DNA of 64,000 nt from an uncultured Candidatus Saccharibacteria bacterium. Lineage in GTDB: Bacteria; Patescibacteriota; Minisyncoccia; Phycocordibacterales; UBA5272. Numbering within the stretch: the stretch's first letter is position 1; each line of letters opens with the position of its first letter. The stretch spans positions 10,805 to 74,804 of the forward strand of contig CAYWEW010000006.1 of NCBI GenBank assembly GCA_964457775.1. Reading direction: 5' to 3'. The position numbers and the translations under genes were made by a program. Below, in pieces: positions 4,897-54,100 of this stretch. Under the pieces are notes generated by a model. It saw only the letters and a list, made by a program, of their open reading frames with translations. It did no database searches and was not told the DNA's origin.

Positions 4897-6567
4897 ATGA
4901 ATTTATCGAAAAAGGTTTTACAGGCTCTGCTTATTTTGGGTTCTATCTCCCTCACCACCTCTTCTGTTTATGCATCAATAACAATAACGTCGCCAAATGG
5001 AGGTGAAAATTGGTCAGGAACAAAAACAATTACTTGGACCAGTGTCGGAACAAGTGGATTCGTAAATATATATAGATGTCTAACATTAGATTGTTCTTCT
5101 ACATCCACAGTTGCAACCAATGTTACAGATACAGGTTCGTCTACCTTTGATACGTCTGGGTTAAACGCTACTAACAAAATTTACATAGAAGATGCATCAG
5201 ATACTTCAATGTCAGATGTTTCGGATAACACATTCAGGATCGATAATACAATTTCTAGCTGTAATGCTTCGATTGGGTCAAATAATACTGGCTCTGCAAG
5301 AATAGCAAAAGTAGGTGATCTTATTACCGTCAACTTTGATACTTGCGAATCAATAAGTTTAGGGACCGTTACTTTTTTTGGAAAAATAATTAATGCTACG
5401 AACATTGGAGGAAATACTTGGTCTGTTTCTACAACGACAACCATGACTGATGATGAAGGTCTTGTTTCTTTTAATATTAATTATACCGACCTTGCGGGTA
5501 ATTCAATGTCACGATCAAGTACAGTTAATGGATCATATGTGATATATGACAAAACATTTCCAGAATCCTCTATATCTTTTTCAACATCAACATTCACAAT
5601 TGGAAGTATGGCTACCGCAACAATTACCTTTAATGAGAAAGTAAGAAACTTTGCAAATGATGACATTATTAGAATTGATAACGGAACACTTTCTACTGCA
5701 ACATCATCTGATGACGGGATCACATGGACAGCGATTTTTACTCCGACAGATGCTACAAGTTCATTAAGTAACGTAGTTGTTATTGATACATCTCTGCTTA
5801 ATGATATTGCAGGAAATACTGGAACAAGTACAGCAACATCTTCAAGCTATATTATTGATACTGAGAGACCTACAGCGACAACATCACTGTCTTCTAATTC
5901 AGTTGGAATTAGTCAGACAATAACCCTAACAATTACCTTTAATGAGAAAGTAAGAAACTTTGCAAATGATGACATTATTAGAATTGATAACGGAACACTT
6001 TCTACTGCAACATCATCTGACGACGGTATAACGTGGAACACTATCTTCACCCCAACATTAGGAATTAGTAATACTATAAGTACCATTGCTATTGGATCAA
6101 GCTACACTGACATTTATGGAAATACCTCAGCAACAGGTACAGTTACTGCGAATTTTATCGTTAATACTCCTACAGTTAGTCAGAGTGGAGGCGGAGGTTT
6201 TTCTGGAGGCGGAGGTGGAGGTTCAGTTGTAACTGTTGTTCAGCAACCTGTAGCTACCACTACACAAAATCAAAATACAGCGCAATCCGTACCCGTAACA
6301 ACTCAAAGTACTCTAAACTTACCAACTGTTCTAGGAGCTTCGATATTTATCTTCTCGAAAAACTTAAAGTTAGAATCTACAGGAAATGATGTGATGGAAT
6401 TACAAAAGTTCTTAACAAAAGAAGGATTTTTCAGCAATAAGCCAACTAAGTATTTTGGTAGACTTACGAAAATTGCATTGATGAAATGGCAGAAAAAAAA
6501 CAATTTGCCAGCGACAGGATATTTTGGTCCTATGTCTAGAGTAACTATAAACAGCAATTCTAATTAA
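4897..6567 (+). CDS. secreted surface protein with Big_5-like Ig repeats, a Gly linker and a C-terminal peptidoglycan-binding (PG_binding_1-like) domain
   Basis: It has a signal peptide. Domains ending in ...D(L/I)AGN(T/S) are repeated, matching the Big_5 signature. A GGGGFSGGGGGGS linker precedes the C-terminus. The C-terminus LESTGNDVMELQKFLTKEGFF...LTKIALMKWQKKNNLPATGYFGP matches the PG_binding_1 pattern. Confidence 0.7.
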   Translation: MNLSKKVLQALLILGSISLTTSSVYASITITSPNGGENWSGTKTITWTSVGTSGFVNIYRCLTLDCSSTSTVATNVTDTGSSTFDTSGLNATNKIYIEDASDTSMSDVSDNTFRIDNTISSCNASIGSNNTGSARIAKVGDLITVNFDTCESISLGTVTFFGKIINATNIGGNTWSVSTTTTMTDDEGLVSFNINYTDLAGNSMSRSSTVNGSYVIYDKTFPESSISFSTSTFTIGSMATATITFNEKVRNFANDDIIRIDNGTLSTATSSDDGITWTAIFTPTDATSSLSNVVVIDTSLLNDIAGNTGTSTATSSSYIIDTERPTATTSLSSNSVGISQTITLTITFNEKVRNFANDDIIRIDNGTLSTATSSDDGITWNTIFTPTLGISNTISTIAIGSSYTDIYGNTSATGTVTANFIVNTPTVSQSGGGGFSGGGGGGSVVTVVQQPVATTTQNQNTAQSVPVTTQSTLNLPTVLGASIFIFSKNLKLESTGNDVMELQKFLTKEGFFSNKPTKYFGRLTKIALMKWQKKNNLPATGYFGPMSRVTINSNSN

Positions 6568-6593
6568 ATTTAAAGTATAATTACTCTTCTATT

Positions 6594-7655
6594 ATGAAAA
6601 AAATACTTGTAACCTTAAAACATGTTTTTATACCTCATGATGAGAATGACTACAAGCCACATTTTTTTCGAGAAGTAAGTGTTTCAATGTTACTTTTTAT
6701 GAGTGTGTTTCTATTAGGGTCTTCTGCGGGCAGTTCATTTTTCATGAAAAAAACTGTTCTTGGTGCTGAAATTGCTTCGTCAGTGCTCATTGACCTTACC
6801 AATGAAAGTAGACTGGCTCAAAACGAGCCCCCTTTAATACGTAACCCAAAACTTGATAGAGCTGCTGAATTGAAAGGTAATGACATGGCTAGTAAGCAAT
6901 ATTTCTCTCATAATAGTCCTGAAGGTGTGACACCATGGCATTGGTTCAGAGAGGTTGGTTATAACTTTCTATTCGCAGGTGAAAATCTAGCAATAAACTT
7001 CTCTGATTCAAGTGAAGTTCAAAGGGCGTGGCTTGAATCTCCAACACATAGAGCAAATATAATGAACGTTGAGTTTCGAGAAATAGGTATCGCAACTATA
7101 AAAGGGGAGTATAACGACTACCCTACTATTTATATTGTTCAAATGTTCGGTACTCCAGCATATGGAAAAATTAAAGAAGACAAGTCATTTTCTGTACAAG
7201 AATATGGAGCGTCATCAACGGTAACTGTCTCTAAAATTACTACATCAGAAAACGTTAAAGGTGCTTCTACTGGAACTGTTGCTGAAGAAGTAACTGCAAA
7301 AACTACGGTCGCTTCGACGAGTAGTTCAACCATACAAACTCCTTCTAATCTTGAAAAAATTGTATCAACACAAGATATTGCCGTTGTAAAGAATACTTCA
7401 GTTGAGATGTCAAAAATCCCAAAACATGTTGTTGTCCCAATGATTTCATATTCTACATGGTATGAGAAAATTCTTTTCAAGTTTTCTTCGTATATTGAAA
7501 TTCTTTACAAAGGATTATTACTTCTTGTGGCATTTGCCCTTGTTACTATGGTTTTAATTGAGATTCGTAAACAGCATTATGTTCATATAATGTATGGTAT
7601 TTTCTTGCTTCTTCTTCTAACACTATTTATTAATATTAATAAGATATTCTTGTAG
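6594..7655 (+). CDS. CAP/SCP (PR-1-like) domain protein with a C-terminal TM anchor
   Basis: CAP-domain blocks are present: NESRLAQNEPPL, AAELKGNDMASKQYFSHNSPEG, FAGENLA and WLESPTHRANIMN. A hydrophobic C-terminal helix follows. Confidence 0.65.
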   Translation: MKKILVTLKHVFIPHDENDYKPHFFREVSVSMLLFMSVFLLGSSAGSSFFMKKTVLGAEIASSVLIDLTNESRLAQNEPPLIRNPKLDRAAELKGNDMASKQYFSHNSPEGVTPWHWFREVGYNFLFAGENLAINFSDSSEVQRAWLESPTHRANIMNVEFREIGIATIKGEYNDYPTIYIVQMFGTPAYGKIKEDKSFSVQEYGASSTVTVSKITTSENVKGASTGTVAEEVTAKTTVASTSSSTIQTPSNLEKIVSTQDIAVVKNTSVEMSKIPKHVVVPMISYSTWYEKILFKFSSYIEILYKGLLLLVAFALVTMVLIEIRKQHYVHIMYGIFLLLLLTLFININKIFL

Positions 7656-26809: not shown

Positions 26810-27202
26810 TCATTTGATACCGTATACGATGCGGATGAGGGCACGAAGCGCTCTCGGGAGGTTCCGACCATTCTCGTAACGAGAACCACCGGATTGAGTG
26901 ACGCCGACAGCCATCCAGAAATCTTTTTGATTGAGGCCGATTTTTTGACGTACCTCTTTCAGCTTTTTGGGTGACAAAGGTTTGAAGTTCGGCTTCACCT
27001 TGTCGTTGTACACGAAACGAATGAGTGCACGTACGAACTTCGGAATGTTTCTACTGCTTTCATAGCGAGAACCACCGGATTGAGTGACACCCAAAGCCCA
27101 CCAGAATTTACCCTGGTTGAGCTTAAGTTTCCGTCGTCTCTCCTTCAGTTTTCCTGCTATGAATGTTTTGAAACAAGGTTTCTTTTGCCCGATTGGGGAC
27201 AT
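26810..27202 (-). CDS. single-chain tandem XRE-type HTH DNA-binding protein (two HTH repeats)
   Basis: Two repeats of LNQ(G/K)xFWxA(L/V)GVTQSGGSRYExxRN(I/L)PxxxRALIRxVY, matching the XRE-HTH pattern G.SQS.VSR.E.G.R.P. The repeat is also visible at nucleotide level (cgagaaccaccggattgagtgac twice). GC is about 50% against a genome value of about 35%. Confidence 0.6.
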   Translation of the reverse strand: MSPIGQKKPCFKTFIAGKLKERRRKLKLNQGKFWWALGVTQSGGSRYESSRNIPKFVRALIRFVYNDKVKPNFKPLSPKKLKEVRQKIGLNQKDFWMAVGVTQSGGSRYENGRNLPRALRALIRIVYGIK

Positions 27203-27288: not shown

Positions 27289-27735
27289 TTATTTCTCAAC
27301 TCTTTTTCTTAATTCATCTATCACAGCCTTCTCCCAGTACTTCATTGAATACCAACCAATGAGAGGTTTTGCAACTATTCTTAGCCACTGTTTATGAATA
27401 GCGACTTGATACAGATAATCAATTTGAGTCCCGTCCCTATGTTCAGACATTATGAATTCTTCATGACCAGAAGTTCCGAACTTAGGGCTTACATTATCAG
27501 AAATGTAACCTTTTCCAGGAAGGATTGTGGTTTTCATTTTTACTGGAAAATTTTGGCCAAATGATTTTGCGGTTGCATTCATTTCTAAATAATTTCCTTC
27601 ACGTTTAGTTACGCGTATAGAGTCTGCAACTTTTGGAAAATATTTAGGGAAATTTTCAAAGTCAGACATGATTTTAAATACATCTGATATTGGTGCTTTT
27701 ATAATCCATTTAGCACGAAGAGTAATATCTTTCAT
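27289..27735 (-). CDS. SRPBCC (polyketide cyclase/START-like) family protein
   Basis: Polyketide_cyc2-like pattern: IKAPISDVFKIMSDFENFPKYFP... Confidence 0.65.
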   Translation of the reverse strand: MKDITLRAKWIIKAPISDVFKIMSDFENFPKYFPKVADSIRVTKREGNYLEMNATAKSFGQNFPVKMKTTILPGKGYISDNVSPKFGTSGHEEFIMSEHRDGTQIDYLYQVAIHKQWLRIVAKPLIGWYSMKYWEKAVIDELRKRVEK

Positions 27736-27785
27736 ATATAAAAAAGTGTAGCAGAAAAATTAAAAATATAAAATGTAAATATATA

Positions 27786-27824
27786 AAAAGCCACCGACAA
27801 GCGATGGCTTTCGGTGGAAAAAAT
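27786..27824 (-). terminator. intrinsic terminator of the island family GCCACCGA..TCGGTGGC
   Basis: Minus-strand RNA CCACCGAAAGCCAUCGCUUGUCGGUGGCUUUUUAUAUA. Confidence 0.65.
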
Positions 27825-27831
27825 TATTTCA

Positions 27832-28041
27832 TTAATCAGGAATTATGACATCCTTCCATGATTGTGGAATGAGTTTGCTATCGATTCCAAAACTTTTTCC
27901 GCACGCTTCACAACTTACTTCGAATGTAGAGGAGTGATGAGAAATTTCATTGTAGTGTATATCTTTTGAAAAGACACCAAGTGAAGATTTGCAACGTGGG
28001 CACTCGACTGTGATGTAATTGTTATTCTTCAAAACTTTCAT
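27832..28041 (-). CDS. small zinc-ribbon protein
   Basis: CPRC...CEAC motifs. The start is taken at MKVLKNNNY, which is preceded by GGAGA. Confidence 0.5.
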   Translation of the reverse strand: MKVLKNNNYITVECPRCKSSLGVFSKDIHYNEISHHSSTFEVSCEACGKSFGIDSKLIPQSWKDVIIPD

Positions 28042-28096
28042 TTGTATCTCCATGTGTGTAAGAGGTCAACAAACATAATGGGTGGGAGGTTTGGGA

Positions 28097-28369
28097 TTAT
28101 CTTTCTAAGGGAATGAGTATTAATCCGGGGTTTTTCCCAGTTGATTCCCAATCAATCCTGTAGCCCATTTTAGCAAAATGTTCCTCTGAATATTTTCTGA
28201 TGTATCCCAACCGCATTTTCCACCAATTATCAAAGGCAGAGAATTGAGCTGAAGCTGACCAGAAATTCATCGTCATCGGATTTTTATTTTCTGCGTCAAA
28301 TTTTGCAAGAGCATCCAGACATTCTTTCTTCCACTCGTCAGCAGTTTTCTCGGTGAGAAGGGTTTGCAT
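28097..28369 (-). CDS. hypothetical small protein (90 aa)
   Basis: TTGACA-N18-TATTAT promoter at about 28400-28430, AGGAGA RBS, and a terminator of the island family downstream. Confidence 0.5.
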   Translation of the reverse strand: MQTLLTEKTADEWKKECLDALAKFDAENKNPMTMNFWSASAQFSAFDNWWKMRLGYIRKYSEEHFAKMGYRIDWESTGKNPGLILIPLER

Positions 28370-28495
28370 TACGGTCTCCTAAAGGAACAATACTCACATA
28401 ATACAATGATTATCTATATGTTGTCAAGTTATTTAAGAGATGGGTAAATTTATTTATATTCAATAAAATAACAGTACAGTGGTTAATATATAAAT

Positions 28496-28530
28496 GAAAG
28501 CCACCGACAAGCGATGGCTTTCGGTGGTGT
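28496..28530 (-). terminator. intrinsic terminator (island family)
   Basis: The same CCACCGA-loop-TCGGTGG hairpin, followed by T-rich sequence on the minus strand. Confidence 0.6.
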
Positions 28531-28545
28531 TTAAGTTTGAGTTAT

Positions 28546-29187
28546 TCAGTAAATAATATTTGCATCATACAATGCAGTAATCAGCTTCCTTCTGTCTGGA
28601 TTATAAACAAACATTTTCTCTTTGATTTCTGAAGGTGCGAGAGCTCGTGCTTCTCCTTCTTTTTCATTCACACGATGGAGCGCGTCATAGACATCAGCAA
28701 TGGCAACAATACGGCCGTACTCACGAATCAAGAGCTTGGTAGTCTGTCTATAATTATGAAGATATTGAGGTAGAACATCAGGGTAACCATCATCTTGGAA
28801 CTTGTGATGCCAGAGCATAGCCTCTGCTGTGAAATCAAAGCGTCCACGCAAGAGTCGATATCCATCCAAAACATGGTTCTCAATTTCTTCCTGGTCTTTT
28901 TCACTCCATGTACCAACTTTACCGAGCACATCAAGACATGTCTGACATTTACCAAGATCATGTAGTGCCCCTGCAAGGAAAAGTGGTTTTGATTCATGAT
29001 GAGTAAAATTACCAATCTTCATTGCGAGCAAACCCACACGAAGTGAATGCTCGTAGTGGAAACGAGTGACTGCGCTTTTGTCTCGCAACGGTGCGAGTAT
29101 AGAGCGTAAATGATTTTGGTTGGTTGTTGTTATCCCGATTGCTTTGGCAGTTTCCCAAAACGTAACTTCCGTCTTCGATGTTTTCAT
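28546..29187 (-). CDS. stand-alone HD-GYP domain protein (213 aa)
   Basis: Motifs HYEHSLRV, ALHDLGK, WHHKFQDDGYP (HHExxDGxGYP) and IADVYDALHRV. Confidence 0.7.
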   Translation of the reverse strand: MKTSKTEVTFWETAKAIGITTTNQNHLRSILAPLRDKSAVTRFHYEHSLRVGLLAMKIGNFTHHESKPLFLAGALHDLGKCQTCLDVLGKVGTWSEKDQEEIENHVLDGYRLLRGRFDFTAEAMLWHHKFQDDGYPDVLPQYLHNYRQTTKLLIREYGRIVAIADVYDALHRVNEKEGEARALAPSEIKEKMFVYNPDRRKLITALYDANIIY

Positions 29188-29371
29188 TAGTTATTATCCT
29201 TTCTGAAATTGAACTATTTCTAATATAAAACTATATAACAGGGGGAGGTTTGTCAAGCTAATAATCTATTATTTGTGGAAAATATAATGTGTGGTCAGTA
29301 CATAAAACAAGAAACCGCCAAAGCAATTTCTTGCTAGCGGTTATGAGAATATTGTAAAACTGATTTCTAAT

Positions 29372-29647
29372 TCAACGCAATATATAACTGTGAAGAAACT
29401 GACCAACGAACCCCAAGTTGTTCACATGGTACCAAGTTGTCCACGCTGAAACAAAAAAGAAAGGAGTGGAGATCAAAATAATCATATGGGGGATTCCGTC
29501 CAGTCCTCGACCTTTAATGTCTATTCCAACATAAACATAAAAACATGTGTTGAGCACTGTCAGTGTGATCAAAACTATAGTGGAAAAAGTCGAGGCAACG
29601 AACCAACCTGCAAAAACGAGAGCAGTAATCACAAAAATTTGTAACAT
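29372..29647 (-). CDS. small integral membrane protein (3 TM)
   Basis: Hydrophobic protein. It lies 11 nt downstream of the preceding gene and is probably bicistronic with it. Confidence 0.45.
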   Translation of the reverse strand: MLQIFVITALVFAGWFVASTFSTIVLITLTVLNTCFYVYVGIDIKGRGLDGIPHMIILISTPFFFVSAWTTWYHVNNLGFVGQFLHSYILR

Positions 29648-29658
29648 CTATACTCCTC

Positions 29659-29892
29659 TTATTTGAAATGAATAGTTAGTTCTGTGGGGTCATAGCATCC
29701 TACCGTTCCATCTTTATGCTTGACTTCATAGCACAGTCCATGAGAATCGTGGTGAGCTATGACTTCACCTTCAACCCCCCACTTACGTCGTTTTTTTCCT
29801 TCTTCAGTCCATGAATCAGCATTTGCTTCATCTTCTTGAGTGGTTCTAACGAGAGTTCCAGGAGAAATGGGTGGGTATTTTCCCGCGTTCAC
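29659..29892 (-). CDS. hypothetical small protein (GTG start)
   Basis: Strong promoter TTGACA-N17/18-TTATAAT at 29941-29970 and an AGGAA RBS. No recognisable domain. Confidence 0.5.
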   Translation of the reverse strand: MNAGKYPPISPGTLVRTTQEDEANADSWTEEGKKRRKWGVEGEVIAHHDSHGLCYEVKHKDGTVGCYDPTELTIHFK

Positions 29893-29940
29893 TGAGATTC
29901 CTTTCTAATCGATTATGTTTAAATGAAAAAGAACAAAAGC

Positions 29941-29970
29941 ATTATAACAATAAATATTAGCTTTTGTCAA
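29941..29970 (-). promoter_or_regulatory. sigma70 promoter for the 29659..29892 unit
   Basis: Minus strand TTGACAaaagctaatatttattgTTATAATgcTTTTGTTCTTT. Confidence 0.6.
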
Positions 29971-30058
29971 TTTTTAAATGATATCACGTGATGGAAATTA
30001 TTATATAAAACAAGAAGTCGCCACTAAGGTGACCCTTGTGGCGACTGTTGCAAAAACT

Positions 30059-30244
30059 TCACGATACAAGTTCTTTAGTGGTAGGAATTGTATTCTTACC
30101 ACAGTCAGGGCATTTTACTCCCTTTAACCCAACACTAATTAGTGTGGTAAACTTTTTCCATCTGGACTGTTTCTCCAAAGATTCAACAATACGACGACCT
30201 TCCCACTGGCAGTGAGGGCATTTTAGTCTTTTTTCAAGAGTCAC
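30059..30244 (-). CDS. small zinc-ribbon protein (probable GTG start)
   Basis: CPHC...CPDC motifs. The ORF-track ATG overlaps the -10 box, so a GTG start after GGAGAAAGAT is used. A terminator lies downstream. Confidence 0.5.
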   Translation of the reverse strand: MTLEKRLKCPHCQWEGRRIVESLEKQSRWKKFTTLISVGLKGVKCPDCGKNTIPTTKELVS

Positions 30245-30374
30245 ATCTTTCTCCAAAACGAACAATAATCTCATAATACAATGATTGTATATTTCTTGTC
30301 AATTATATCAAATAGCAGTAATTATATTCATAATACTTGATTGGAAGTAAACGTGAAAATGTCGGGAGCAAATA

Positions 30375-30410
30375 GAAACCACCGAACGCGCGGTGGCTTT
30401 CGGTGGGGAG
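30375..30410 (-). terminator. intrinsic terminator (island family)
   Basis: Minus strand CCACCGAA-agccaccgcgcg-TTCGGTGG followed by TTTCTATTT. Confidence 0.6.
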
Positions 30411-30418
30411 TTGATTTC

Positions 30419-30634
30419 TTAATCATCGCCAAAAAGTGCATCGCCAATGGCGGCGCCAATGAAGTCTCCTCCGACCAGTCCGCCGATTAACGTGCTATCA
30501 GTTACAGCACCAACAACGAAGCTTGTAAAAAAATCGCCATCATCTTCGTATGACACTTGACGGTATGCAACTGGACACTTGTGACTTTGTCCAGGATGAA
30601 GGATAGTCCCGCACCTGCATTTTTTCTGACTCAT
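30419..30634 (-). CDS. small peptide with an N-terminal Cys/His cluster and a C-terminal glycine-zipper hydrophobic segment (71 aa)
   Basis: MSQKKCRCGTILHPGQSHKCP ... GGLVGGDFIGAAIGDALFG (GxxxG repeats). GAGG RBS. TTGACA-N17-TATACT promoter. Confidence 0.5.
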   Translation of the reverse strand: MSQKKCRCGTILHPGQSHKCPVAYRQVSYEDDGDFFTSFVVGAVTDSTLIGGLVGGDFIGAAIGDALFGDD

Positions 30635-30700
30635 GGTAACCTCATGGATTATTAAAGAACAAAAATAGTATACCATAATATACTGAATCTGTCAACAAAG

Positions 30701-30770
30701 TTCCAATTAGTAAACAAGCTCCAAACCTTTGAAAAGGGGAAGTATGGGAGTGTGATGAGAGCATAAAAAC
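30701..30770. repeat. conserved promoter-upstream element, copy A (degenerate)
   Basis: Aligns to the 68-nt family GCTCCAACTGGTAAACAAGTTCAGAACTTTTGATTGGAGGAAGTATGAGAATGTGGTGAGTATATAAAA. Confidence 0.5.
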
Positions 30771-30822
30771 AAGAAACCGCCAGATCATACTGATCCAGCG
30801 GCAGAATTGCTTTATTCATATA

Positions 30823-31365
30823 TCAAGAATTAAAAGCAAATCTCCATATTCGTTGTAGTACACTAATCCTTTTACCGTAACGTAAACCATTATCGTATTC
30901 GTAACCATGTTTAACTAATGGCAACGTACCCTCTTCAACAAGGGGAATGCACGATTCACCACCAAGTTCAATAACCCCAGGTATATCAATCCAATTACTC
31001 AAAGACTCTGTTTTAACCCAAAATCCGCGACCTGGATTAAAGTATGTATCAACACTTATCTCACTACTGTCATTGATTCTAATTGGCTTTAACAACATTA
31101 TCTCATTAATACACATAACGAATGCACTACTTCGAAGACGGTACACAATGCTGCAGTGTAGAAGTGCTCCAACTGTACAAAACGGTATGATTGCATCATA
31201 TTGTGCCCTATACTTCTGTTCACCACAGCAACCAGCGATAATGAGAGCAATTACAACCTTGTGACCCATGCTATCTTCTAGGTCGCAAGAGAAAACTGTA
31301 TTATTACCTTCACGTATTTCTGCTTTTCGTACAACGAAATCTCGGTAGATATCTTCGTGTACCAT
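30823..31365 (-). CDS. hypothetical protein (180 aa) from MVHEDIYRDF
   Basis: AAGGAGA RBS and TTGACA-N17-TAGAGT promoter. The longer ORF-track start would run through the promoter. Confidence 0.5.
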   Translation of the reverse strand: MVHEDIYRDFVVRKAEIREGNNTVFSCDLEDSMGHKVVIALIIAGCCGEQKYRAQYDAIIPFCTVGALLHCSIVYRLRSSAFVMCINEIMLLKPIRINDSSEISVDTYFNPGRGFWVKTESLSNWIDIPGVIELGGESCIPLVEEGTLPLVKHGYEYDNGLRYGKRISVLQRIWRFAFNS

Positions 31366-31431
31366 GACGAGTCTCCTTAATTTAAAGAACAAAATTACTC
31401 TATAATTTCGGGATTTGATTGTCAAGTAGTC

Positions 31432-31500
31432 GCTCCAACTGGTATGCAAGTTCAGAACGTTTGATTGGAGGAAGTATGAGAATGTGGTGAGTATATAAAA
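31432..31500. repeat. conserved promoter-upstream element, copy B
   Basis: gctccaactggtatgcaagttcagaacgtttgattggaggaagtatgagaatgtggtgagtatataaaa. Confidence 0.7.
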
Positions 31501-31541
31501 GCAAAACCCCACCTAAGCAATGATTGCTTAGGTGGAGTGAA

Positions 31542-31901
31542 TTAAACCTGATATTCTTGTAAATTAAGTAAGTCAAAAATTTTCACTCGTACAAGATTTT
31601 CAATTTGCTCAGGAGATTCGTTACCTTCAAGAACAATGATTTTCTCTTGAGTAACTCCATCTTCCAACAATAGAGCAACGTATCCTTCACGCGTCTGACC
31701 AGAAGTGAATGTCGTATATTCTCCAATGACTACAACAACATTATCTTTGCCAAATCTCTTAACACGCATTAATCCGAGTACATCAGTTGAAGCAAAATGC
31801 AGACGTTCCAAACCCCAACCACCAACTCTTCTGGAAAGAAGGTCAAATTTTTCTCGGTTTTGATCTTGAACACAAATTATCTCAAACATACTGGGTGGCA
31901 T
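31542..31901 (-). CDS. hypothetical protein (119 aa)
   Basis: GGAGG RBS. Promoter TTTACA-N17-TATAGT with an embedded palindrome. Terminator CCACCTAAGCAAT-cat-TGCTTAGGTGG downstream. Confidence 0.5.
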   Translation of the reverse strand: MPPSMFEIICVQDQNREKFDLLSRRVGGWGLERLHFASTDVLGLMRVKRFGKDNVVVVIGEYTTFTSGQTREGYVALLLEDGVTQEKIIVLEGNESPEQIENLVRVKIFDLLNLQEYQV

Positions 31902-31924
31902 ATTGCCTCCGTTATTAAAAGAAC

Positions 31925-31954
31925 AAAAACACTATACCATAGTATAGTGTTTTT
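31925..31954. promoter_or_regulatory. 12-6-12 perfect inverted repeat (candidate operator) overlapping the -10 of the 31542..31901 promoter
   Basis: AAAAACACTATA-CCATAG-TATAGTGTTTTT. The -35 (tgtaaa on the plus strand) is at 31954-31959 and the -10 at 31931-31936. Confidence 0.6.
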
Positions 31955-31965
31955 GTAAATATCAA

Positions 31966-32034
31966 GCTCCAAACAGTACACAGGTTCAGAACATTTGATT
32001 GGAAGAAGTATGAGAATACGGTAGGTATATAAAA
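31966..32034. repeat. conserved promoter-upstream element, copy C
   Basis: gctccaaacagtacacaggttcagaacatttgattggaagaagtatgagaatacggtaggtatataaaac. Confidence 0.65.
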
Positions 32035-32075
32035 CAGGAAACCGCCGAAGCAGTCCTGTTTTGCTTGGCGGTGAA

Positions 32076-32216
32076 TCACCCCATTGCGGCACGTGACTTG
32101 CCGGTGTAATAGCAACCGCTGTTGCCGCCGGTGTAGGTACGTCCATCGTGGTAGTAATCGCAGGCAACTTCGTATTCGTAGTTGCCACATCTTTGCCAAA
32201 AGGTGACGGTGCTCAT
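32076..32216 (-). CDS. 46-aa Cys/Tyr/Gly-rich peptide
   Basis: MSTVTFWQRCGNYEYEVACDYYHDGRTYTGGNSGCYYTGKSRAAMG. GGAGA RBS. Perfect TTGACA-N17-TATAAT promoter at 32248-32276. Confidence 0.45.
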   Translation of the reverse strand: MSTVTFWQRCGNYEYEVACDYYHDGRTYTGGNSGCYYTGKSRAAMG

Positions 32217-32247
32217 CAAAAATCTCCTGGTTAAAATGACAAATACC

Positions 32248-32276
32248 ATTATACATAATATAATAGTATTTGTCAA
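32248..32276 (-). promoter_or_regulatory. consensus sigma70 promoter of the 46-aa peptide unit
   Basis: Minus strand TTGACAaatactattatattatgTATAAT. Confidence 0.65.
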
Positions 32277-32282
32277 TATGGT

Positions 32283-32349
32283 GCTCCAACTGGTAAACAA
32301 GTTCAGAACTTTTGATTGGAGGAAAGTGAATGTAACTGGTATATAAAAT
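32283..32349. repeat. conserved promoter-upstream element, copy D
   Basis: gctccaactggtaaacaagttcagaacttttgattggaggaaagtgaatgtaactggtatataaaat. Confidence 0.7.
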
Positions 32350-32401
32350 AAAAAAAACACCCCGATCTATGTCGGGGTCGCTTTGTGAAGTGGAGCAGGG
32401 C

Positions 32402-32758
32402 TTACGCCGAATCTTCTTCAAACTCGAGTTCGAATTCTCGATCGCCGAGAGGGTTGTTGTAGTCCGGCATGAACCGCATTGATCGCCTAGCGTCGACTGG
32501 CGAGTAATGGATCTCATAGTCGTTATCATCGCCGTTGCGGGTCTCGTCGTAGATCAGTCGTTGGAGTTCTTCGGCTTTTGGCGTGATAATCCGCAAGCTC
32601 TTCTCTTCGCCCATTCGGCCACGCTGAACCTTCGAGATTTCATACGGCTTACCACGTTGCTTGAGGAATTCGATCATCGCCTCGCGCTCACGCTCGTAGT
32701 TGCCCACGAACACATCCAAACAGTGGGATGTCTCAACTTCGGTGCTGGTTTCGCTCAT
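32402..32758 (-). CDS. acidic hypothetical protein (118 aa), GC-enriched
   Basis: Start at MSETSTEV preceded by AAAGGAA. GC is about 50%. Terminator CCCCGA-catagat-TCGGGG followed by T8. Confidence 0.5.
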   Translation of the reverse strand: MSETSTEVETSHCLDVFVGNYEREREAMIEFLKQRGKPYEISKVQRGRMGEEKSLRIITPKAEELQRLIYDETRNGDDNDYEIHYSPVDARRSMRFMPDYNNPLGDREFELEFEEDSA

Positions 32759-32887
32759 GATACTATTCCTTTCGTATTGAACAATGAGTACCAACAACAC
32801 TAATACAGTATTATATTTTTGTCAAACAAGTTCTAAACCCTAATTGGGTAAATGAAAAACACCTTATGTAAAAGGTGCTTTTCAAGT

Positions 32888-32926
32888 GCTCCAACTGGTA
32901 AACAAGTTCAGAACTTTTGATTGGGC
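32888..32926. repeat. conserved promoter-upstream element, copy E (half-copy)
   Basis: gctccaactggtaaacaagttcagaacttttgattggg. A further degenerate fragment lies at 32821-32852. Confidence 0.55.
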
Positions 32927-33032
32927 AAAAATAAAATAACAACATTTAATTATAACCTTTACAAATTAATAAGTAGTGATAGTATAAAGAATAGTAGTTA
33001 TGTTTAATTTCATTTTTATTCGGAGATGAATA

Positions 33033-33221
33033 ATGTTTTACTTGTATAAAACTTTGTTTCGTAATGTGATTACATCTTTCCTACTTATTAATTTGCTTCT
33101 AATTGCAAATTGTAGTGGTGAGAGCGATGGACATGTTTGTGGTTGTGGTTGTGGACGATGGATACCAAAGGAACGTCCCAGTCAGTGTGATGAAAATGGG
33201 AATTATAATGGAAATTATTAA
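33033..33221 (+). CDS. small Cys-rich exported (lipoprotein-like) peptide, 62 aa
   Basis: Signal peptide with LIANC. CGCGCG cluster. GGAGA RBS. TTTACA-N16-TAGTAT promoter. Terminator AAAAAACACC-atta-GGGTGTTTTTT at 33230-33262. Confidence 0.4.
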   Translation: MFYLYKTLFRNVITSFLLINLLLIANCSGESDGHVCGCGCGRWIPKERPSQCDENGNYNGNY

Positions 33222-33419
33222 TTCATTCCAAAAAAACACCATTAGGGTGTTTTTTATTTTATCAGTTCGATGGGTGATCGTTCAGCTAGTTGGTATTTTA
33301 TTTCATAACTTCGTTATTCATAAAACACCCAACTTCTCGACTCCGAGGAAAACCAACAAAATTTTTTCTAAAAATATTTGAGCTCAATTTTTAGAAAGAA
33401 ATTGTGTAGACCGTTTTCC

Positions 33420-33468
33420 GTTCGATCCCTACGTAAAGAAGGTAATCCTTCTTTACTACCCACCGAGC
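33420..33468 (+). repeat. inverted partial copy of the tRNA-Asn 3' end (T-arm plus acceptor) interrupted by a 24-nt palindrome
   Basis: GTTCGATCCCTAC[GTAAAGAAGGTAATCCTTCTTTAC]TACCCACCGAGC against the tRNA sequence GGTTCGATCCCTACCCACCGAGC. TAC is duplicated at the insertion point. Confidence 0.7.
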
Positions 33469-33505
33469 CAAATGAAAAACACCCCGTAAGGGATGCTTTT
33501 CATTT

Positions 33506-33576
33506 GGCTCCAACTGGTAAACAAGTTCAGAACTTTTGATTGGAGGAAATATAAAGAGGTGTTGAGTATATAAAAA
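33506..33576. repeat. conserved promoter-upstream element, copy F
   Basis: gctccaactggtaaacaagttcagaacttttgattggaggaaatataaagaggtgttgagtatataaaaag. Confidence 0.7.
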
Positions 33577-33610
33577 GAAAGCCACCGAATGCGCGATGGC
33601 TTTCGGTGGT
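33577..33610 (-). terminator. intrinsic terminator (island family) downstream of the pilin gene
   Basis: AAAGCCACCGAATGCGCGATGGCTTTCGGTGG. On the minus strand the hairpin is followed by a T-run. Confidence 0.6.
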
Positions 33611-33627
33611 GTTTGTGAATTAACTGA

Positions 33628-33945
33628 TTACTTGTTTGCAGGGCATTCACTGAATTCGTAGTTGAACAGTATAGAAGTATCCAGACAGTACTCTTTTCGG
33701 GAGCCGTCTTTGTTTTCAACCTGCAGGACTGATTTGTCAAAAATATTTCGCTGAGTGGTAAGAATCTTTGAAACACTGGAATGCGAAACTTGAAGCTCGC
33801 GCAGGGCGCTATCGGTCTGAAACCAAAAGTTTCCCTGACATACTGTTTTTATTGCAAACACCCAACCAACAACGACAATGATGAAAATAATTACAAAGAC
33901 AGTCAAAAGTTCAATCAAAGTAAAACCGCGATTATGACTTTTCAT
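33628..33945 (-). CDS. type IV pilin/pseudopilin-like protein (prepilin N-terminal methylation motif)
   Basis: MKSHNRG/FTLIELLTVFVIIFIIVVVG is a class III signal with G-F-T-L-I-E. Two Cys residues lie in the C-terminal part. Confidence 0.7.
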   Translation of the reverse strand: MKSHNRGFTLIELLTVFVIIFIIVVVGWVFAIKTVCQGNFWFQTDSALRELQVSHSSVSKILTTQRNIFDKSVLQVENKDGSRKEYCLDTSILFNYEFSECPANK

Positions 33946-33981
33946 ATCTCACTCCTCAAAATAGTTAATGAACAATAGAAC

Positions 33982-34011
33982 AAAAACACTCTACCATAAT
34001 AGAGTGTTTTT
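33982..34011. promoter_or_regulatory. 12-6-12 perfect inverted repeat (candidate operator) overlapping the pilin promoter
   Basis: AAAAACACTCTA-CCATAA-TAGAGTGTTTTT. The -35 (tgtaaa) is at 34011-34016 and the -10 at 33988-33993. Compensatory changes relative to the 31925 copy preserve the dyad. Confidence 0.6.
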
Positions 34012-34023
34012 GTAAATAGCTGA

Positions 34024-34095
34024 GCTCGGTGGGTAGGGATCGAACCTACGACCAATTCGTTAACAGCGAACTGCTCTACCGCTGAGCTACCACCG
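34024..34095 (-). tRNA. tRNA-Asn (anticodon GTT)
   Basis: Minus strand: acceptor TCGGTGG/CCACCGA, D-arm GCTC-AGCGGTA-GAGC, anticodon stem GTTCG/CGAAT with loop CTGTTAA, T-arm GTAGG-TTCGATC-CCTAC, discriminator G. CCA is not encoded. Confidence 0.85.
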
Positions 34096-34285
34096 AATAT
34101 TTTATTATTTACACAATATTTTACTATAAAAGTATTCCACTCCTATTTCAAATGTATTCATAATAATACACAAAAAAGTGATTTTTTGCAAGAAGAATTT
34201 TTGTGTATAAGTTAAGCAAGATAAAATTATGAAAATAAAAATCCCTGCATTTTGCAGAGATTTTTAGTGATTATTCACACATTAA

Positions 34286-48112: not shown

Positions 48113-51100
48113 TTATTCTTCGGCTTTAATACACCCTAAATCCTTAATTCTATCTCTTGTTAATTTGTCTGCTTCACCTGTAACTGTAAGACTGTTGTCC
48201 TCCTGGAACTTTTTAACTGCTTTTTTTGTTATATTTAAGAAGTTGCCAGTTACTTTAGTGTTGAAGTATCCTTGCTTTCGGAGATAATACTGTAATTGTG
48301 ACACTTCACCGTTAGTATTATTATCTCTTTTACCATATAACATTTTACTTTTCATGTTAGTACACATTGATTCAGTAAAAGCGCCGAGTACCATGCCATG
48401 ATTTATGTTTCCAGAATTAACAAGCGCGAGAGTATTGTCATTGTAAAGTGTTCCGACATTACCACCTCCACCTCTTCTTCGTGTTGGAGTAGTTGTTGAT
48501 TGTTGTGTTGTGGTAGTAGCAGTAGATTCAGTTATAGTGCTTGTGGACGTAGGACTACCATCTGCTCCACCACCAGTCACTGTCGTAGTTGCTACAACAG
48601 AAGGAAGTTCAAAATTTAGAGTTCTTCCTCCTCCTCCTCCACCTGCATTATATCTAAATATTCTAGACATTGTAGTAATCTGAGGTGTTGCAGAATAAGT
48701 AAAATCAGAAGCGTCCCCATTATTTGACAACCTAAAACAGTAAACCGACCCTGGCAATATATCTCCAGTTGAGCGTATTAAGTACTCAATTTCAGTGTAT
48801 TCACCTTCGTAAAGAACCGTAGGACGAGAAAGACTGTTAAAGGTTTGCATTCTTCCTGTTCTAAACACTTTTCCATTTGGAACACTTATTCCACTTGAAT
48901 GTGTTGTTGACGCGCTATCACTTACATATGAAGATGTGTCTATTTTGAAATGTTCATTAGTATAATCACTTGGTCTTGGCACAGCAGTCCATGAAGTACA
49001 AGAACCATATGAGTACTCCAGCTGATAACGTTTATTAATTAATGATGTTGTGTGGTTGGTAACAACGAAACGCAATCTAATTTTGTCTCCAGTAATAAAA
49101 TCACTAGCCATTGGCGTGTTTTCTGCAATATTATAGGTAGCAGATGATTCATCTCCATTGTCTTGTCTTAGACGATAGGAAGTTACAGTTACATTTGATG
49201 CACCCACATTAGGAGTAGAAGGAGATCCTTCAATTGATGAGACTGCGGTATAGACAGTACCGCTCTTGGTAAATACTTTGAAGTAATATGCGGTACTATT
49301 AGATAATCCAGTAGCTATACATGAGTCATAAGTAGATGTAGCTATTGTAGAATCGACACAGGCAACAGTTGCAGATCCTATAATGTCATTTGTTGAGTAT
49401 GTTGCCCCATTAGATGGACTATCAGTAATTGTCTGGGTTGAACGTAGGACTATTACTTGATTAAATGACGGGTTAGATGGAATAGTATAATCAATAGTTG
49501 CTTGAGAGTTGTTTGGGGTAACAGTCAAGTCTTCGAGATTGGTAGATCCCGATTCCTGGGAGCTTGCTGTAGGAACTGTTGGAATCATGATGGATTCAGC
49601 GAATGCTGCGTAGATGTAAGTTGCTCCTGTTGAATTATACCCACTACCATTGTCTCGCGCTTTAAATCCATTAGCAAGAATATCTATTCGTCCGGTTGTC
49701 GTATCATCCGCATTTGATGAGTTAGCGTACAACAAATAGTTTGCCGAGTTGTAACCTGCACGAGTTGTGTCGAATATATTCCAATGCTCTGTTCCACCAT
49801 CAATACGCTTTGTTAAAATATATCTCGGCTTGAATCCTGTATAAACAAAAGCTCCGTCTGAATTTCCATTACCGGTGTAACTTCCGAATTTAGAGTACCC
49901 AGGCACTTCTGACCAAACATAAGCAACATAGGTGTACCCACTAGCGCTAACACCAGTATTACCTCCAAGGTTCAAAACTGAATCAGTTGATGTTGCGTAA
50001 AATCTTGTAGAATCGTTCGTTAGTGAAGCTGCCTGACTAAGAGCTAACCAATATGTTCCTCCTCCAAAATTACTATTCCATGTGTACCAATTCTCTGCGC
50101 CACCGGACCTCGCTTTTACAATAGCAAAATTTGGTGCAGTGCCCAACCCATGACCGACGGTCTTGTTGTCACCATTACCAGAACTTGACCCTGAATATGA
50201 AACAATAGAGAATCCCGCAGTAGGATTAGCTGATACTGTTGAAGTAATGGTTCCTGATGTGTCTGTGGTCGTAGCCCCACTCGCCTTCCAATTCCACGAG
50301 ACAAAGGTGTCTCCATTGAAATTCACACGACCTGACCCAGCGTTATCAGTACCAACAGTAAATCCGTCGGAATTAAACGATGTTAATCCATACCCTGAAG
50401 CTTCTGCTGTTTCAGTATTTGTTGTATCAGATTCAAGATGTTTTCGTGCTCCACGTACAGAATCAATAATATTACTACTTGCTGATGTGTTTCTATCTTT
50501 TATCCAGACTAAATCTGGTTGAAAATCAAGACCTGTTATTGATTGTGTACTTCCCGTCCCCGTATATGTCGCCACATCAAAATACAGGTTAGGTTTTAAA
50601 ATTACCGGGGTTGATAGATTTGCAGTAGAGAGAGATTTGAATCCTTCGGGTGGAGTATAGGTAAATGATTTTTGACCGAAGTTGGCAGTAAAATAATTTC
50701 CTCCACCATACGAAGCCATTGCTGGAACAAAAACACCAGATAAAGAACTAAAGGCAACCCCCTGTGACACTCCATTTTTATAGAAAGTTAGCGTTCCAGC
50801 ATCCATATCTAAAGCTGTTCCAATAACATCACCATTAGTATAGGTGGAGCCATAAGCAGTACCAGAATTACTGGTATACTTTTGCCCATTTTGATCGTAT
50901 GAATAACTTAACGAATCACTTCCAGGGAAATATCCATTGGCATAGGTACTAAGACTTGCAGGAGAGATGCCAACATCAGTTCCAACTGATACAGCTCCAA
51001 TATTAGTTTCCCAGTACCATTTCCCAGAAGAAACACCAATGGTTCCTAATTTTGTTTGACTATTTGCAGTAAGCGCACTAAAACGTAAATTACCAAGAGA

Positions 51101-54100
51101 AAGTGTTCCTGCGCTCAAAGTTAAAGCGTTAAGTGTAGCAAAATTATTAAGAGGAGTATCCGTCACTTGATTGTTGGTAGATGTTATCCCACCGTTTGAA
51201 GCCCAGTTATTTGAATTACCTGAACTGTCTGCGCCGACTTGATTACTATTACTGAAATTCAGACGGAATCCATTATTTCCATATGAGCCAATGTACTTCT
51301 TTGGAATCCAATTGCCTGTCGAGGAAGAAGTCTCTCCGAATGATGCTGGTGTTAACTGTTGTCCATCAATAAAATTAACATCCGATAAATAGCCGTCATA
51401 ATAATGTGCACCTGTAGCTTTTGCAACTTGATGTGATATTGCAGAATTAAAACCTTGTGAATAATTTAAAGCGGGGTAATTTGCAGAAGAGAAGGAAGTT
51501 ATTTGCGTCCCATTAGAAAAGATTTTGACTCTATCCGATGATACGGCTTGAGTTGTGTCCACTGCAAGCACAATATGATACCAAGCAGATGGGTCACGAA
51601 AAACTTGTGTAGTGTTTAGATTACTACTAACTGCAGCATTGTTATAATATTGAATATGGTCATTTAAATCAAAAATAAGTTCATCCGTTGTACCTGGTGC
51701 AGCAAACAATGCTGGATAACCAGACGTCAATTTACTGCGCTTGACCCAACCTGACCATGTAAATTTTTTATTATCAGTTGGAGTAGAAAATGTTCTGTTA
51801 AGATACTGACTCTGCGCACTATCAAACATAAGTGAATTCGTAAGGCTGTCAGTCGTGAAGGTAGAGTCAGATGAGTAAGCAGTACCATAGGAGTTGGTAG
51901 CATAAGCACTATAGTAATAAGTGGTAGAAGTAGCGAGACCAGTAATAGATACAGTGAACACTCCAGTAGTTGTACCTGTACCTGCTGTACAGTTAGTGAT
52001 AGGTGCAGGAGTAGAACCATAACACACCCCACGTGATGTTATGTTAGAACTTCCTATAGTGTCTACTGTTCCACCTATTACTGCAGTTGTTTCTGTTGTC
52101 GATGTTGCTGTAGGAGATGAGAGTGTGGGGAGAGATGGTACTGTTGGGACCATGACAGATTCAGCAAAGGCGGCGTAGATAAATGTGCCACCATTGGTGT
52201 TTAGATATGATATTGATGACCTAATCTTAAAACCATTAGACAAGATATCTCTATCATACGCATGATCAGGACTCTCCCCTTGTGAGAGGTTTGGAAAAAG
52301 TGGATTATAATTCACATTGTATGAGTCTCTTTTTGTATCAATAATATGCCAATCATTTGTAGAATCTGTTCTTTTAATCATTATCCAACGTGGTTTAAAT
52401 CCTGTGTAGATGAATGGTCCATCCGCAGAGCCATTACCAGTATAACTACCAAATTTTGAGTAGCCTTGAACTTCAGCAAATGAGTAAGCAACTAGATCTG
52501 CACCACTAGCTAAAGGTGTAGAGGTTAGGCCAAATGTTGTCGTTGACCATGCCCCACTCCAATTTGATGAACCATTTGATTGTGCTGCTGTTGTTGATAA
52601 ATCAAGATAATAGTCAGCGCCTGTTAATTTTTGATGCCAAACATTCCAGCCTGTAGTACCAACATTGTCTCTAGACTTGAATATCACCATTGTTGGGGTT
52701 GCGTTCAATCCATGACCAACTGTTCCAGTAGAACCAGATCCTGTAAATGTAGCAACAGAGAAACCTGCGGTTTGATTTGCAGAAACAACACTTGTGACAG
52801 TCCCAGAAGTATTTGTTGTTGTGGAATTGCCTGCTTTCCATAGCCAATCAACATAGGTAGCCCCATTTGCGTTATTATCACTATCATTTGCATTAAGGGT
52901 GTACCCATCTGCTGTCGAAGAGAAAGAGTGAAGCGATGGTGCTCCACCATTATATGCTTCATATCCTGTAGTGTTAGAGCTTAGTGACTTACTCCCACCA
53001 AAACCTCGTACAGCATCCTGAAGATAGTGGTTTGTAGAACCACTACGTCCTTTACTCCATATTAAATCAGGCTGAAACACTAATCCTGATTTTGTATACC
53101 CTATTGCTGTGCCCGTACGAGTTACAACATCAAAATGTTGATTTGGTTTTAAAATGGTCGGAGCCGGGAGGTTTGCAGTAGAGAGAGACTTGAATCCTGT
53201 TGGTGGGGTGTAGGAGAAGGACTTTTGACCGAAGTTAAGTGTAGCTGATTCAGTTTCAGCATCAGGATTTACTCTAAAAATCGGGAAATAACCGGTAACA
53301 CTGGAAGATGCGAAAGTATGACCTCCACTATTTGTTACTGGATTACTTCCATTGTTCCATGTTCCATTTTTACCAAACCAAACTTTTCTAAGTGATGGAC
53401 TTACGGCAACCATTATAGTGTCACTTGTAGTATAACTAACACCATCTGATGTAGAGCTACCAGGAATTTTGATATAATCCCCTCCACCATGAGCAATTAC
53501 TGCAGCTGCATCACTACCAGAACCAGCAGATGTTTGAAATATATTTCTATTGGTTTCTATGTCCCAGTCAACAACACCAACTTGGCTTGATGAAATAGTT
53601 CTAGTAGTATTATTTAGTTTTGCTTCAAAATATGTGTCAAAATCTTTTATTGGCATGCTTGCCATAACACCATAAATATTATAGTAGCCACCACCAAGTG
53701 AGGAAGTTAAATTACCCTTAGTTAATGAGAGCGAGGAAGATCTCTGAAGTGGGTTTAATGTTGCAAAGTTATTAAATGGAGTATCAATAAATTGATTCGT
53801 TGTTGAACTCATACTACCGTTCGTTGTCCATGTATTTGCTGTAGTGTGTGTAGAGTCAATTGGTGCAGTATCAAGACCAAGAGCAGTACTACTACTGAAA
53901 TTAAGATGAAATCCATTTACTCCATAAGTGCCTTGATATGATTTTGGAATCCAGTTGCCAGTGTTACTGTCTGATTTTCCAAAGTAACTTGGAGTAAGAG
54001 CTTGGCCGTCGACGAAGTTAACATCGGCCATGTATACATCGGAGTAATCAGCGGAATCCATTTTAGAAATATAATGGGCGTTCGCAGCATTAATACCACC

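Follow-up and report, generated by a model that had tools for sequence, protein, structure and literature searches.

The window analysed here is the whole stretch of 64,000 nucleotides (nt) taken from contig CAYWEW010000006.1 of an uncultured Candidatus Saccharibacteria bacterium (assembly GCA_964457775.1, positions 10,805 to 74,804), and the element in question is a short motif, TTGTTC, that stands just behind the −10 box of promoters in an island of small genes. The island (27,780–34,024) consists of small genes in series, each transcribed from the minus strand, and begins 8 nt past the 3' end of a tRNA-Asn gene. Each unit consists of a near-consensus promoter, a GGAG-type ribosome-binding site, an open reading frame (ORF), and a GC-rich hairpin with a T-run. 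Nine island promoters match TTGACA/TATAAT at 9–12 of 12 positions, and four of these carry a TG extension. Assignments of the encoded cargo were limited to a pilin-like N terminus, an HD domain, and zinc ribbons; for the remaining cargo proteins no family, phage, or defence assignment was found. The flanks of the island are cellular (ABC transporter, SRPBCC-fold protein, DUF975 membrane protein, ribosome hibernation factor, peptidyl-prolyl isomerase, fmt, and def).

Related loci (L-numbered) were gathered by scanning a genome collection with the repeat found upstream of the promoters. Across the window and these loci the island is flanked by housekeeping genes (fmt, def, HPF, MreB, RRF), and the gene order around it is the same in Patescibacteria assemblies labelled variously as Paceibacteria, Saccharibacteria, or "Gracilibacteria". 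The content of the locus varies between relatives, and the block of tRNA-Asn plus island is flipped in L040 and L042 relative to the window. The distal island edge was set at the last terminator (27786..27812), where contigs from other samples also stop: independent short-read contigs of the same species (L043–L046, L048–L050) break off no more than a few hundred bases from either island edge, as would be expected if the island were repetitive or, in natural populations, heterogeneous.

The promoters of ten units were compared (P1–P10, Table 1; all promoter coordinates are given on the minus strand). The original prediction had reported the motif in about nine of them, and this count was borne out: TTGTTC is present in eight of the ten and a TTGTCA variant in a ninth, the unit at 28546 having neither. 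The motif follows the −10 box at a distance of 4 nt in five units and of 7 nt in two; it lies 12 nt past a weak −10 box in the unit at 32402, and the variant is found at +5 in the unit at 32076. Two pairs of near-identical promoters, also predicted, were recovered (28375–28427 and 30250–30302, 85% over 53 nt; 31917–31961 and 33974–34018, 91% over 45 nt). Chance occurrence in T-rich DNA had been named as the finding that would undo the motif. Judged as an exact word at a fixed promoter position, it occurs above chance (TTTTGTTCTTT, four observed, each in an island promoter, versus 0.25 under a first-order Markov model; positional pattern TANNNTNNNNTTGTTC, ten observed versus 1.5 ± 1.3 in shuffled sequence, with 0 of 100 shuffles reaching ten), whereas the 11-mer with one mismatch is not enriched window-wide (10 versus 6.75). 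A positional binomial gave about 1e-21, a value that is overstated because the promoters are paralogues.

Three observations go beyond the original prediction, namely a palindrome, a repeat of 40 nt (the 40-mer) upstream of the promoters, and conservation across genomes. The TTGT of the motif mirrors the final ACAA of TTGACAA in the −35 region as its reverse complement, and in many promoters the complementarity runs inward for 8–18 bp. Many of the promoters are palindromes of 37–41 bp. Their arm sequences differ from promoter to promoter and co-vary. Within the window, four promoters form predicted hairpins (−10 to −20 kcal/mol, z −3.7 to −7.4), one is marginal, and five are decayed. At the site of the original prediction (P10) the palindrome is decayed in the window and intact in the homologous promoters L023:7301 and L001:2473. 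About 25 promoters with arms of 8–17 bp and differing arm sequences were found in the related loci, for example the arm pairs ACAATAAACAT/ATGTTTATTGT, ACAATAGTAAC/GTTACTATTGT, and ACAAAAGCAGTATA/TATACTGCTTTTGT.

Co-variation was assessed separately for the promoters with the motif at 4 nt and at 7 nt from the −10 box (4-nt and 7-nt class). Among 16 aligned promoters belonging to the 4-nt class, 88.8% of the cells were paired versus 82.8 ± 1.2% after shuffling (0 of 500 shuffles), the value fell to 31–58% when the partners were slid, and four pairs showed changes on both sides. In the 7-nt class 82% were paired, versus 25–52% with slid partners. The motif occupies two registers relative to the −10 box because the symmetry axis has two positions, and its TTGT part is accounted for by pairing with the ACAA found in the −35 region.

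The remaining TC falls where the symmetry is broken. A perfect palindrome would end in TTGTCAA and thereby give a second TTGACA on the opposite strand; the actual end is TTGTTC, so that TC breaks the symmetry exactly at the position of the mirrored −35 box (TGTCAA). When 15 promoters of the 4-nt class were scored, their mirror counterparts reached 4.6 of 6 at the −10 box (4.8 forward) and 3.07 of 6 at the −35 box (5.8 forward), and the TG extension was present in 0 of 15 mirror and 11 of 15 forward promoters. P3 (32276), the sole window promoter that ends in TTGTCA, is also the one that the promoter scan lists on both strands. From these asymmetries we infer that TC and the asymmetric loop keep an otherwise symmetric promoter one-way. 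In the same class the transcription start is likely the G of TTGTTC, because this is the only purine 7 nt past the −10 box; in the 4-nt class alone does a G fall at the predicted +1.

The promoter is a component of a composite intergenic module of about 130–150 nt, consisting of a GC-rich terminator, TATATAC, the 40-mer with a GTTCWGAAC core, the promoter, and a Shine–Dalgarno sequence. Upstream of most promoters the order is terminator, TTTTATATAC, about 20 nt, and the 40-mer (CCTCCAATCAAA-N-GTTCTGAAC-YTGTRTACCRKTTGGAGC). Within the window the 40-mer occurs only in the island. GTTCNGAAC was observed seven times versus 0.8 expected, five of the seven being upstream of island promoters. The dyad stands at a variable distance of 20–24 nt from the −35 box.

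The module recurs at the same tRNA-Asn locus in several related Patescibacteria assemblies. When the island was compared by blastn with all fetched loci, the modules were 75–95% conserved across genomes and the ORFs between them almost never matched. The proposal that the units were made by copying a promoter and 5' untranslated region (5'UTR) module agrees with this result, the module being common to cassettes and genomes while the ORFs differ. A metagenome scan for further modules gave three loci. Three comparisons speak for exchange. The 119-residue protein encoded at 31542–31901 is identical in L051, where it stands amid different neighbours; promoter, 5'UTR, and ORF are about 99% identical, and the terminators on both sides and the 40-mer about 80%, the high identity starting at the GGAGC end of the 40-mer. 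L012 and L035 share 99% identity over 2.3 kb from inside the 40-mer and are unrelated upstream of it. L001 and L040 share a cassette of about 95% identity that reaches from the edge of the 40-mer to the terminator tail. The junction lies inside the 40-mer core in one case and at its GGAGC edge in two. A homologue of the 119-residue protein gene in L001 stands behind a promoter of the other class. A phage origin of the island was rejected on the basis of its cellular flanks and the lack of matches: blastn gave none in 50,697 phage records, and viral contigs gave none to three promoter and module patterns, a single match to the 40-mer core having the look of chance.

Table 1. Coordinates of the tRNA-Asn gene, promoters, 40-mer blocks, and terminators of the island, in descending order of position (promoter entries: −35 box, spacer, −10 box, distance, motif; 40-mer positions are in plus-strand view).
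Feature	Position	Strand	Details
tRNA-Asn (GTT)	34024..34096	−	ARAGORN; Rfam 69.8 bits
P1, pilin-like gene 33628–33945	33978..34016	−	TTTACA, 17 nt, TAGAGT, 4 nt, TTGTTC; perfect palindrome 34013–33980, 15-bp arms, fold −18.3 kcal/mol, z −7.1; second ATTGTTC at 33976–33970
GC-rich intrinsic terminator, first cassette	33577..33604	−	terminator scan
TATATAC, spacer, 40-mer CCTCCAATCAAAAGTTCTGAACTTGTTTACCAGTTGGAGC	33505..33583	−	40-mer 33507–33546
40-mer, followed by a hairpin in place of a promoter	32886..32935	−	40-mer 32888–32925; 95% identical to L001:3223-3318
P2, gene 32402–32758	32779..32825	−	TTGACA, 17 nt, TAGTGT (weak), 12 nt, TTGTTC; palindrome absent; GTTTAGAAC 4 nt upstream of −35
Terminator, gene 32402–32758	32359..32378	−	terminator scan
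40-mer and TATATAC block upstream of P3	32281..32359	−	40-mer 32283–32322
P3, gene 32076–32216	32237..32276	−	TTGACA, 17 nt, TATAAT, TTGTCA (at +5) in place of TTGTTC; near-perfect palindrome, 18-bp arms, fold −19.8 kcal/mol, z −7.4; mirror promoter on plus strand scores 11/12
Terminator, gene 32076–32216	32030..32071	−	terminator scan
40-mer and TATATAC block upstream of P4	31964..32042	−	40-mer 31966–32005
P4, gene 31542–31901	31921..31959	−	TTTACA, 17 nt, TATAGT, 4 nt, TTGTTC; palindrome 31956–31923, 15-bp arms, z −6.2; about 99% identical in L051
Terminator, gene 31542–31901	31506..31538	−	15 pairs; terminator scan
40-mer and TATATAC block upstream of P5	31430..31508	−	40-mer 31432–31471
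P5, gene 30823–31365	31387..31425	−	TTGACA, 17 nt, TAGAGT, 4 nt, TTGTTC; palindrome decayed, z −0.5
Terminator, gene 30823–31365	30776..30802	−	terminator scan
Degenerate 40-mer block upstream of P6	30698..30776	−	62–70% identity to other copies
P6, gene 30419–30637	30657..30695	−	TTGACA, 17 nt, TATACT, 4 nt, TTGTTC; partial palindrome, z −1.9
Terminator, gene 30419–30637	30376..30399	−	terminator scan
P7, zinc-ribbon gene ending at 30059	30260..30302	−	TTGACA, 18 nt, TATTAT, 7 nt, TTGTTC; palindrome decayed
P8, bicistronic unit 29659–29892 and 29372–29647	29931..29970	−	TTGACA, 18 nt, TATAAT, 4 nt, TTGTTC; 8-bp arms ACAAAAGC/GCTTTTGT, z −3.7
P9, HD-domain gene 28546–29187	29230..29256	−	TTGACA, weak −10; neither TTGTTC nor palindrome
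Terminator, HD-domain gene	28496..28522	−	terminator scan
P10 (site of the original prediction), unit 28097–28369 and 27832–28053	28385..28427	−	TTGACA (28427–28422), 18 nt, TATTAT (28403–28398), 7 nt, TTGTTC (28390–28385); then AGGAG and ATG at 28369
Terminator, last cassette	27786..27812	−	terminator scan

Several further features of the module were recorded. A family of terminators (CACCGAAAGCCATCGC...CGGTGGCTTTC; 28496–28530, 27786–27820, 33577–33612, and 30376–30408) can form two overlapping alternative hairpins, and its non-Watson–Crick pair is U·G on the gene strand, in contrast to the promoter palindromes, which are free of strand bias. On the strand opposite to the genes, 31472–31500 (+) and equivalent positions hold GGAGG-N4-ATG followed by a mini-ORF of 3–8 codons (for example, MRMW and a stop), kept in L001, L012, and L018; in one frame the plus strand of the module reads ...FRTFDWRKYENVVSI and a stop, without a start codon. 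That the 40-mer could be the remnant of a protein C terminus on this strand (...LQLVNKFRTFDWRKYENVVSI and a stop) was not supported: a start codon is lacking, and stops occur 7–40 codons upstream. One variable base is at a third codon position, one copy differs by 3 nt, and at the remaining variable sites the changes are non-synonymous. Comparison of the 40-mer by eye with a tRNA 3' half, a sigma-54 or ECF promoter, an IHF site, dif, and attC gave no convincing match. RNAalifold on 35 of the 36 collected copies gave no consensus structure on either strand, and in the Rfam search tRNA-Asn was the sole match, with nothing for the 40-mer. The core of the 40-mer (CCAATCAAAAGTTCTGAAC(T/C)TG) has 22–25 nt in common with an intergenic repeat of environmental Chlamydiae (Waddliaceae, Parachlamydiales; L003, L009, L011, L013, L014, L016, L017, L019, L021, L022, L026–L032), in which TCTCTCCACCTCCA and a terminator hairpin come after it; a search for a gene or tRNA consistently next to these elements found none.

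Other side observations concern the locus itself. One cassette (32930–33510) is inverted and carries a lipoprotein-like ORF of 62 residues (33033–33221, +) with its own promoter and terminator (33231–33255); it is framed by hairpins at 32860–32895 and 33465–33510, each adjoined by a 40-mer. At 33420–33468 (+) there is a copy of the 3' half of tRNA-Asn in the orientation opposite to the true gene, divided between T-arm and acceptor strand by a perfect hairpin of 24 nt (33433–33456); comparable split tRNA-like fragments adjoin the 40-mer in L001, L012, and L025. The gene at 32402–32758 (−) appears, on reading the sequence, to have a GC content markedly above that of the rest of the island, which suggests a recent foreign origin; its promoter fits the module most poorly. 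About 600 nt past the distal island edge, after the SRPBCC gene (27289–27735), a protein with two RsaL-like helix-turn-helix (HTH) domains is encoded (26810–27202, −). Its gene is kept in the same species from other samples and missing from the locus in L040 and L042, and the protein is a candidate regulator. Two neighbouring giant ORFs (48113–55654 and 55952–63064, −) encode 2513 and 2370 residues.

Taken together, TTTTGTTC/ATTGTTC is probably the right-hand edge of a palindromic sigma-70-type promoter that belongs to a shuffled regulatory module. According to this proposal the promoter would be built as a palindrome of 37–41 bp, the left arm of which begins within the −35 box (TTG-ACAA...) and the right arm of which includes or follows the −10 box and ends in ...TTGT, with TTTTGTTC/ATTGTTC as the invariant right edge. 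It would fire in one direction owing to TC and to an asymmetric loop, from which the TG of an extended −10 box comes. The modules stand between ORFan cassettes of one gene each, which make up a hyperplastic island beside tRNA-Asn in a Patescibacteria genome, and would offer homology by which recombination swaps cassettes within and between genomes, which may be why the same promoter and motif precede unrelated genes. As to what the palindrome does in the 4-nt class, a terminator-like insulator is preferred over a recombination hot spot, a quasi-palindrome by-product, or an operator, because its shape is that of an A-tract, a stem, and a T-tract, and because P1 abuts the tRNA-Asn gene and its hairpin is the sole terminator-like one in the scan between the tRNA and the first cassette gene. 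An inverse link between the strength of the upstream terminator and the quality of the palindrome was also considered; it is suggestive in some units and contradicted by P3 and P4.

A number of points weigh against this interpretation. The stems are AT-rich and the 7-nt class has no T-tract, which would make a poor terminator, and most cassettes already own a strong GC-rich terminator about 100 nt upstream. The palindrome is lacking in half of the window promoters and TTGTTC persists where it has decayed, so the promoter does not need the palindrome, and the motif may do something independent of it. Palindrome mismatches comprise 13 G·T and 13 A·C and thus show no strand bias; folding of the sense-strand RNA is left without positive support by this equality, and the palindrome must act at the DNA level, on both strands, or not at all. 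The mapped exchange junctions, all in or at the edge of the 40-mer, number three. Finally, the sequence conservation of the 40-mer and the match of its core to Chlamydiae exceed what a passive patch of homology needs.

The persistence of TTGTTC beyond the decay of the palindrome also speaks for regarding the motif as a signal of the start region, in which GTTC at or near +1 is read by RNA polymerase or by a shared regulator. A single protein might then bind both here and at the GTTCWGAAC dyad and in this way control the island as a whole. In alignments with diverged spacers TTGTT has stayed just as constant as the −35 and −10 boxes, TC is conserved and is not accounted for by pairing, and G falls at the predicted +1 of the 4-nt class. 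The excess of GTTCNGAAC, its position upstream of island promoters, and the GTTC half-site that the motif has in common with the 40-mer dyad point in the same direction, as does the tandem RsaL-like HTH protein encoded beside the island. However, the original prediction of a common regulatory signal at +1 was not established: the motif stands in two registers, 4 and 7 nt from the −10 box, and hence RNA polymerase cannot read it at one fixed position, and TTGT is explained by the palindrome. The distance between dyad and −35 box is variable, the HTH gene is missing from the same locus in L040 and L042, and a half-site of 4 nt is weak evidence. A start-region signal is accordingly judged unlikely.

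The decay in half of the window promoters, where the promoter consensus is kept and the symmetry lost, can also be read to mean that the palindrome has no function. Templated correction of quasi-palindromes during replication is an established mutational process, and it could have made and kept the symmetry of paralogous promoter copies; it also yields apparent compensatory changes. The absence of strand asymmetry among the mismatch types agrees with it, and near-identical promoter sub-families do recur (for example, AAAGCAGTATA in L005, L018, L023, L024, and L025). Against this explanation, perfect arms of 14–17 bp recur across many divergent genomes and come in at least six unrelated sequences, and the symmetry breaks precisely at the mirrored −35 box and the TG extension, a pattern that looks selected. 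A by-product of replication is thus a rather improbable account.

The junctions at the 40-mer could alternatively reflect a dedicated site-specific recombinase that acts in trans on the palindromes, the 40-mer, or both, the island then being an integron-like array of cassettes with their own promoters. The cassettes are co-oriented single genes, the palindromes keep their structure and vary in sequence as attC sites do, and the 40-mer is partially dyad-symmetric about GTTC-W-GAAC. All three mapped junctions are in it or at its edge, its core of 22–25 nt is shared with the Chlamydiae repeats, and the block is inverted between relatives. No integrase or other recombinase was found in the island or in the loci that bear the 40-mer, save ordinary insertion sequence transposases in L023, where two DDE (rve) transposases lie within the array (5109–5984 and 6362–7237). 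A large serine recombinase element in L038 (11036–12553) replaces the cassette array at the 3' end of tRNA-Asn in a locus without 40-mers. The position of the junction varies (core once, GGAGC edge twice), the other end of the exchanged segments is a stop codon or terminator and not the next 40-mer, and the palindromes have no attC R/L boxes. A recombinase substrate is consequently quite unlikely, and it is very doubtful that the locus represents a cassette system of the candidate phyla radiation, in which a recombinase with its gene elsewhere takes up hairpin–promoter cassettes and shuffles them at the 40-bp GTTCWGAAC dyad and a related system with the same core exists in environmental Chlamydiae. 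Most improbable is that the palindrome serves a symmetric repressor as operator for silencing the island promoters. In its favour are an inverted repeat covering −35 to +1 (the classic position for repression) and nearly invariant outer ACAAA/TTTGT and inner TATA. Against it, the arm interiors vary freely and are still complementary, which a sequence-reading protein would not require; 34–38 bp would be very long for a single operator, and the invariant positions are already accounted for by the −35 and −10 boxes.

The island and its module were compared with several known systems. Phage "morons" are self-contained units of promoter, gene, and terminator, as are the units of the island. Integrons resemble the island in their co-oriented arrays of single genes and in recombination-associated palindromes with conserved structure and variable sequence. 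They differ from it in that no IntI or other tyrosine recombinase was found in the island, its flanks, or the loci with the 40-mer, and in that each cassette here has its own consensus promoter and terminator, integron cassettes being mostly promoterless and dependent on Pc. The palindrome ends in TTGACAA/TTGTTC and not in RYYYAAC...GTTRRRY, is devoid of R''/L''-L'/R' boxes and of strand asymmetry, and the mapped junctions lie outside it. Intrinsic terminators are approached by the 4-nt class, which shows an A-tract, a core stem of 8 bp, a short loop, a stem, and a T-tract (ACAAAAA...TTTTTGTTCTTTT), is flagged by the terminator scan, and folds with −17.8 to −18.3 kcal/mol before UUGUUCUUUU. 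Here, however, the stems are AT-rich and share their position with a consensus promoter; the tract is missing from the 7-nt class, and half of the window copies do not fold.

Putative mobile promoters and promoter reuse have been described in prokaryotes (PMC3575422), and highly similar promoters before unrelated genes, within and across genomes, are likewise seen here; the difference is that reuse is organised within a single syntenic island, where the promoter is palindromic in architecture and is always accompanied by the same block (terminator, TATATAC, 40-mer). In pseudo-symmetrical bidirectional promoters, overlapping −10 elements give divergent starts that are typically 18, 10, or 23 bp apart (Warman, Grainger; PMC12825309). 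A −10-like element is present on both strands in the island as well, and P3 (32276) is predicted to fire both ways; the −10 elements are, however, 6 nt apart, the implied starts about 31 bp apart, and the mirrored −35 box is systematically degenerate. The palindromic promoters also offer a natural setting in which to study how a promoter can bear symmetry and how this symmetry is then broken to enforce direction.

The closest described system is the PeSL (promoter-early stem-loop) known from T4-type phages. PeSLs combine a strong promoter with a stem-loop in a small module; they flank ORFans in hyperplastic regions and mediate modular shuffling by recombination (PMC2839356, PMC4122927). The island is an analogue of this system and not a member. 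Common to both are a sigma-70-like promoter, a predicted stem-loop terminator upstream of most promoters, and a Shine–Dalgarno sequence, as well as conserved modules that flank differing ORFans (non-essential in the case of PeSL) in a hyperplastic region. Recombination at modules explains insertions, deletions, and replacements between relatives, and the breakpoints found here are at or within the module in three comparisons. Conversely, the island lies at a tRNA-Asn locus of a cellular Patescibacteria chromosome and not in the genome of a T4-type phage, and no phage match was obtained; the promoter itself is palindromic, the junctions are marked by an additional conserved 40-mer whose core is GTTCWGAAC, and the stems do without the GGGG...CCCC motif of PeSL. 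For Patescibacteria, with their tiny genomes and their dependence on hosts, the ways of gaining and trying out new genes are poorly understood. A constant place in the chromosome at which orphan genes are put between ready, insulated, strong one-way promoters and terminators would offer them a cheap platform for gene sampling, a strategy proposed for T4-like phages and here met in cells, and the consensus modules could be portable expression parts for organisms with almost no genetic tools. The symmetry-broken palindromic promoter inside a PeSL-like cassette of a Patescibacteria hyperplastic island is a more interesting result than the motif that led to it.

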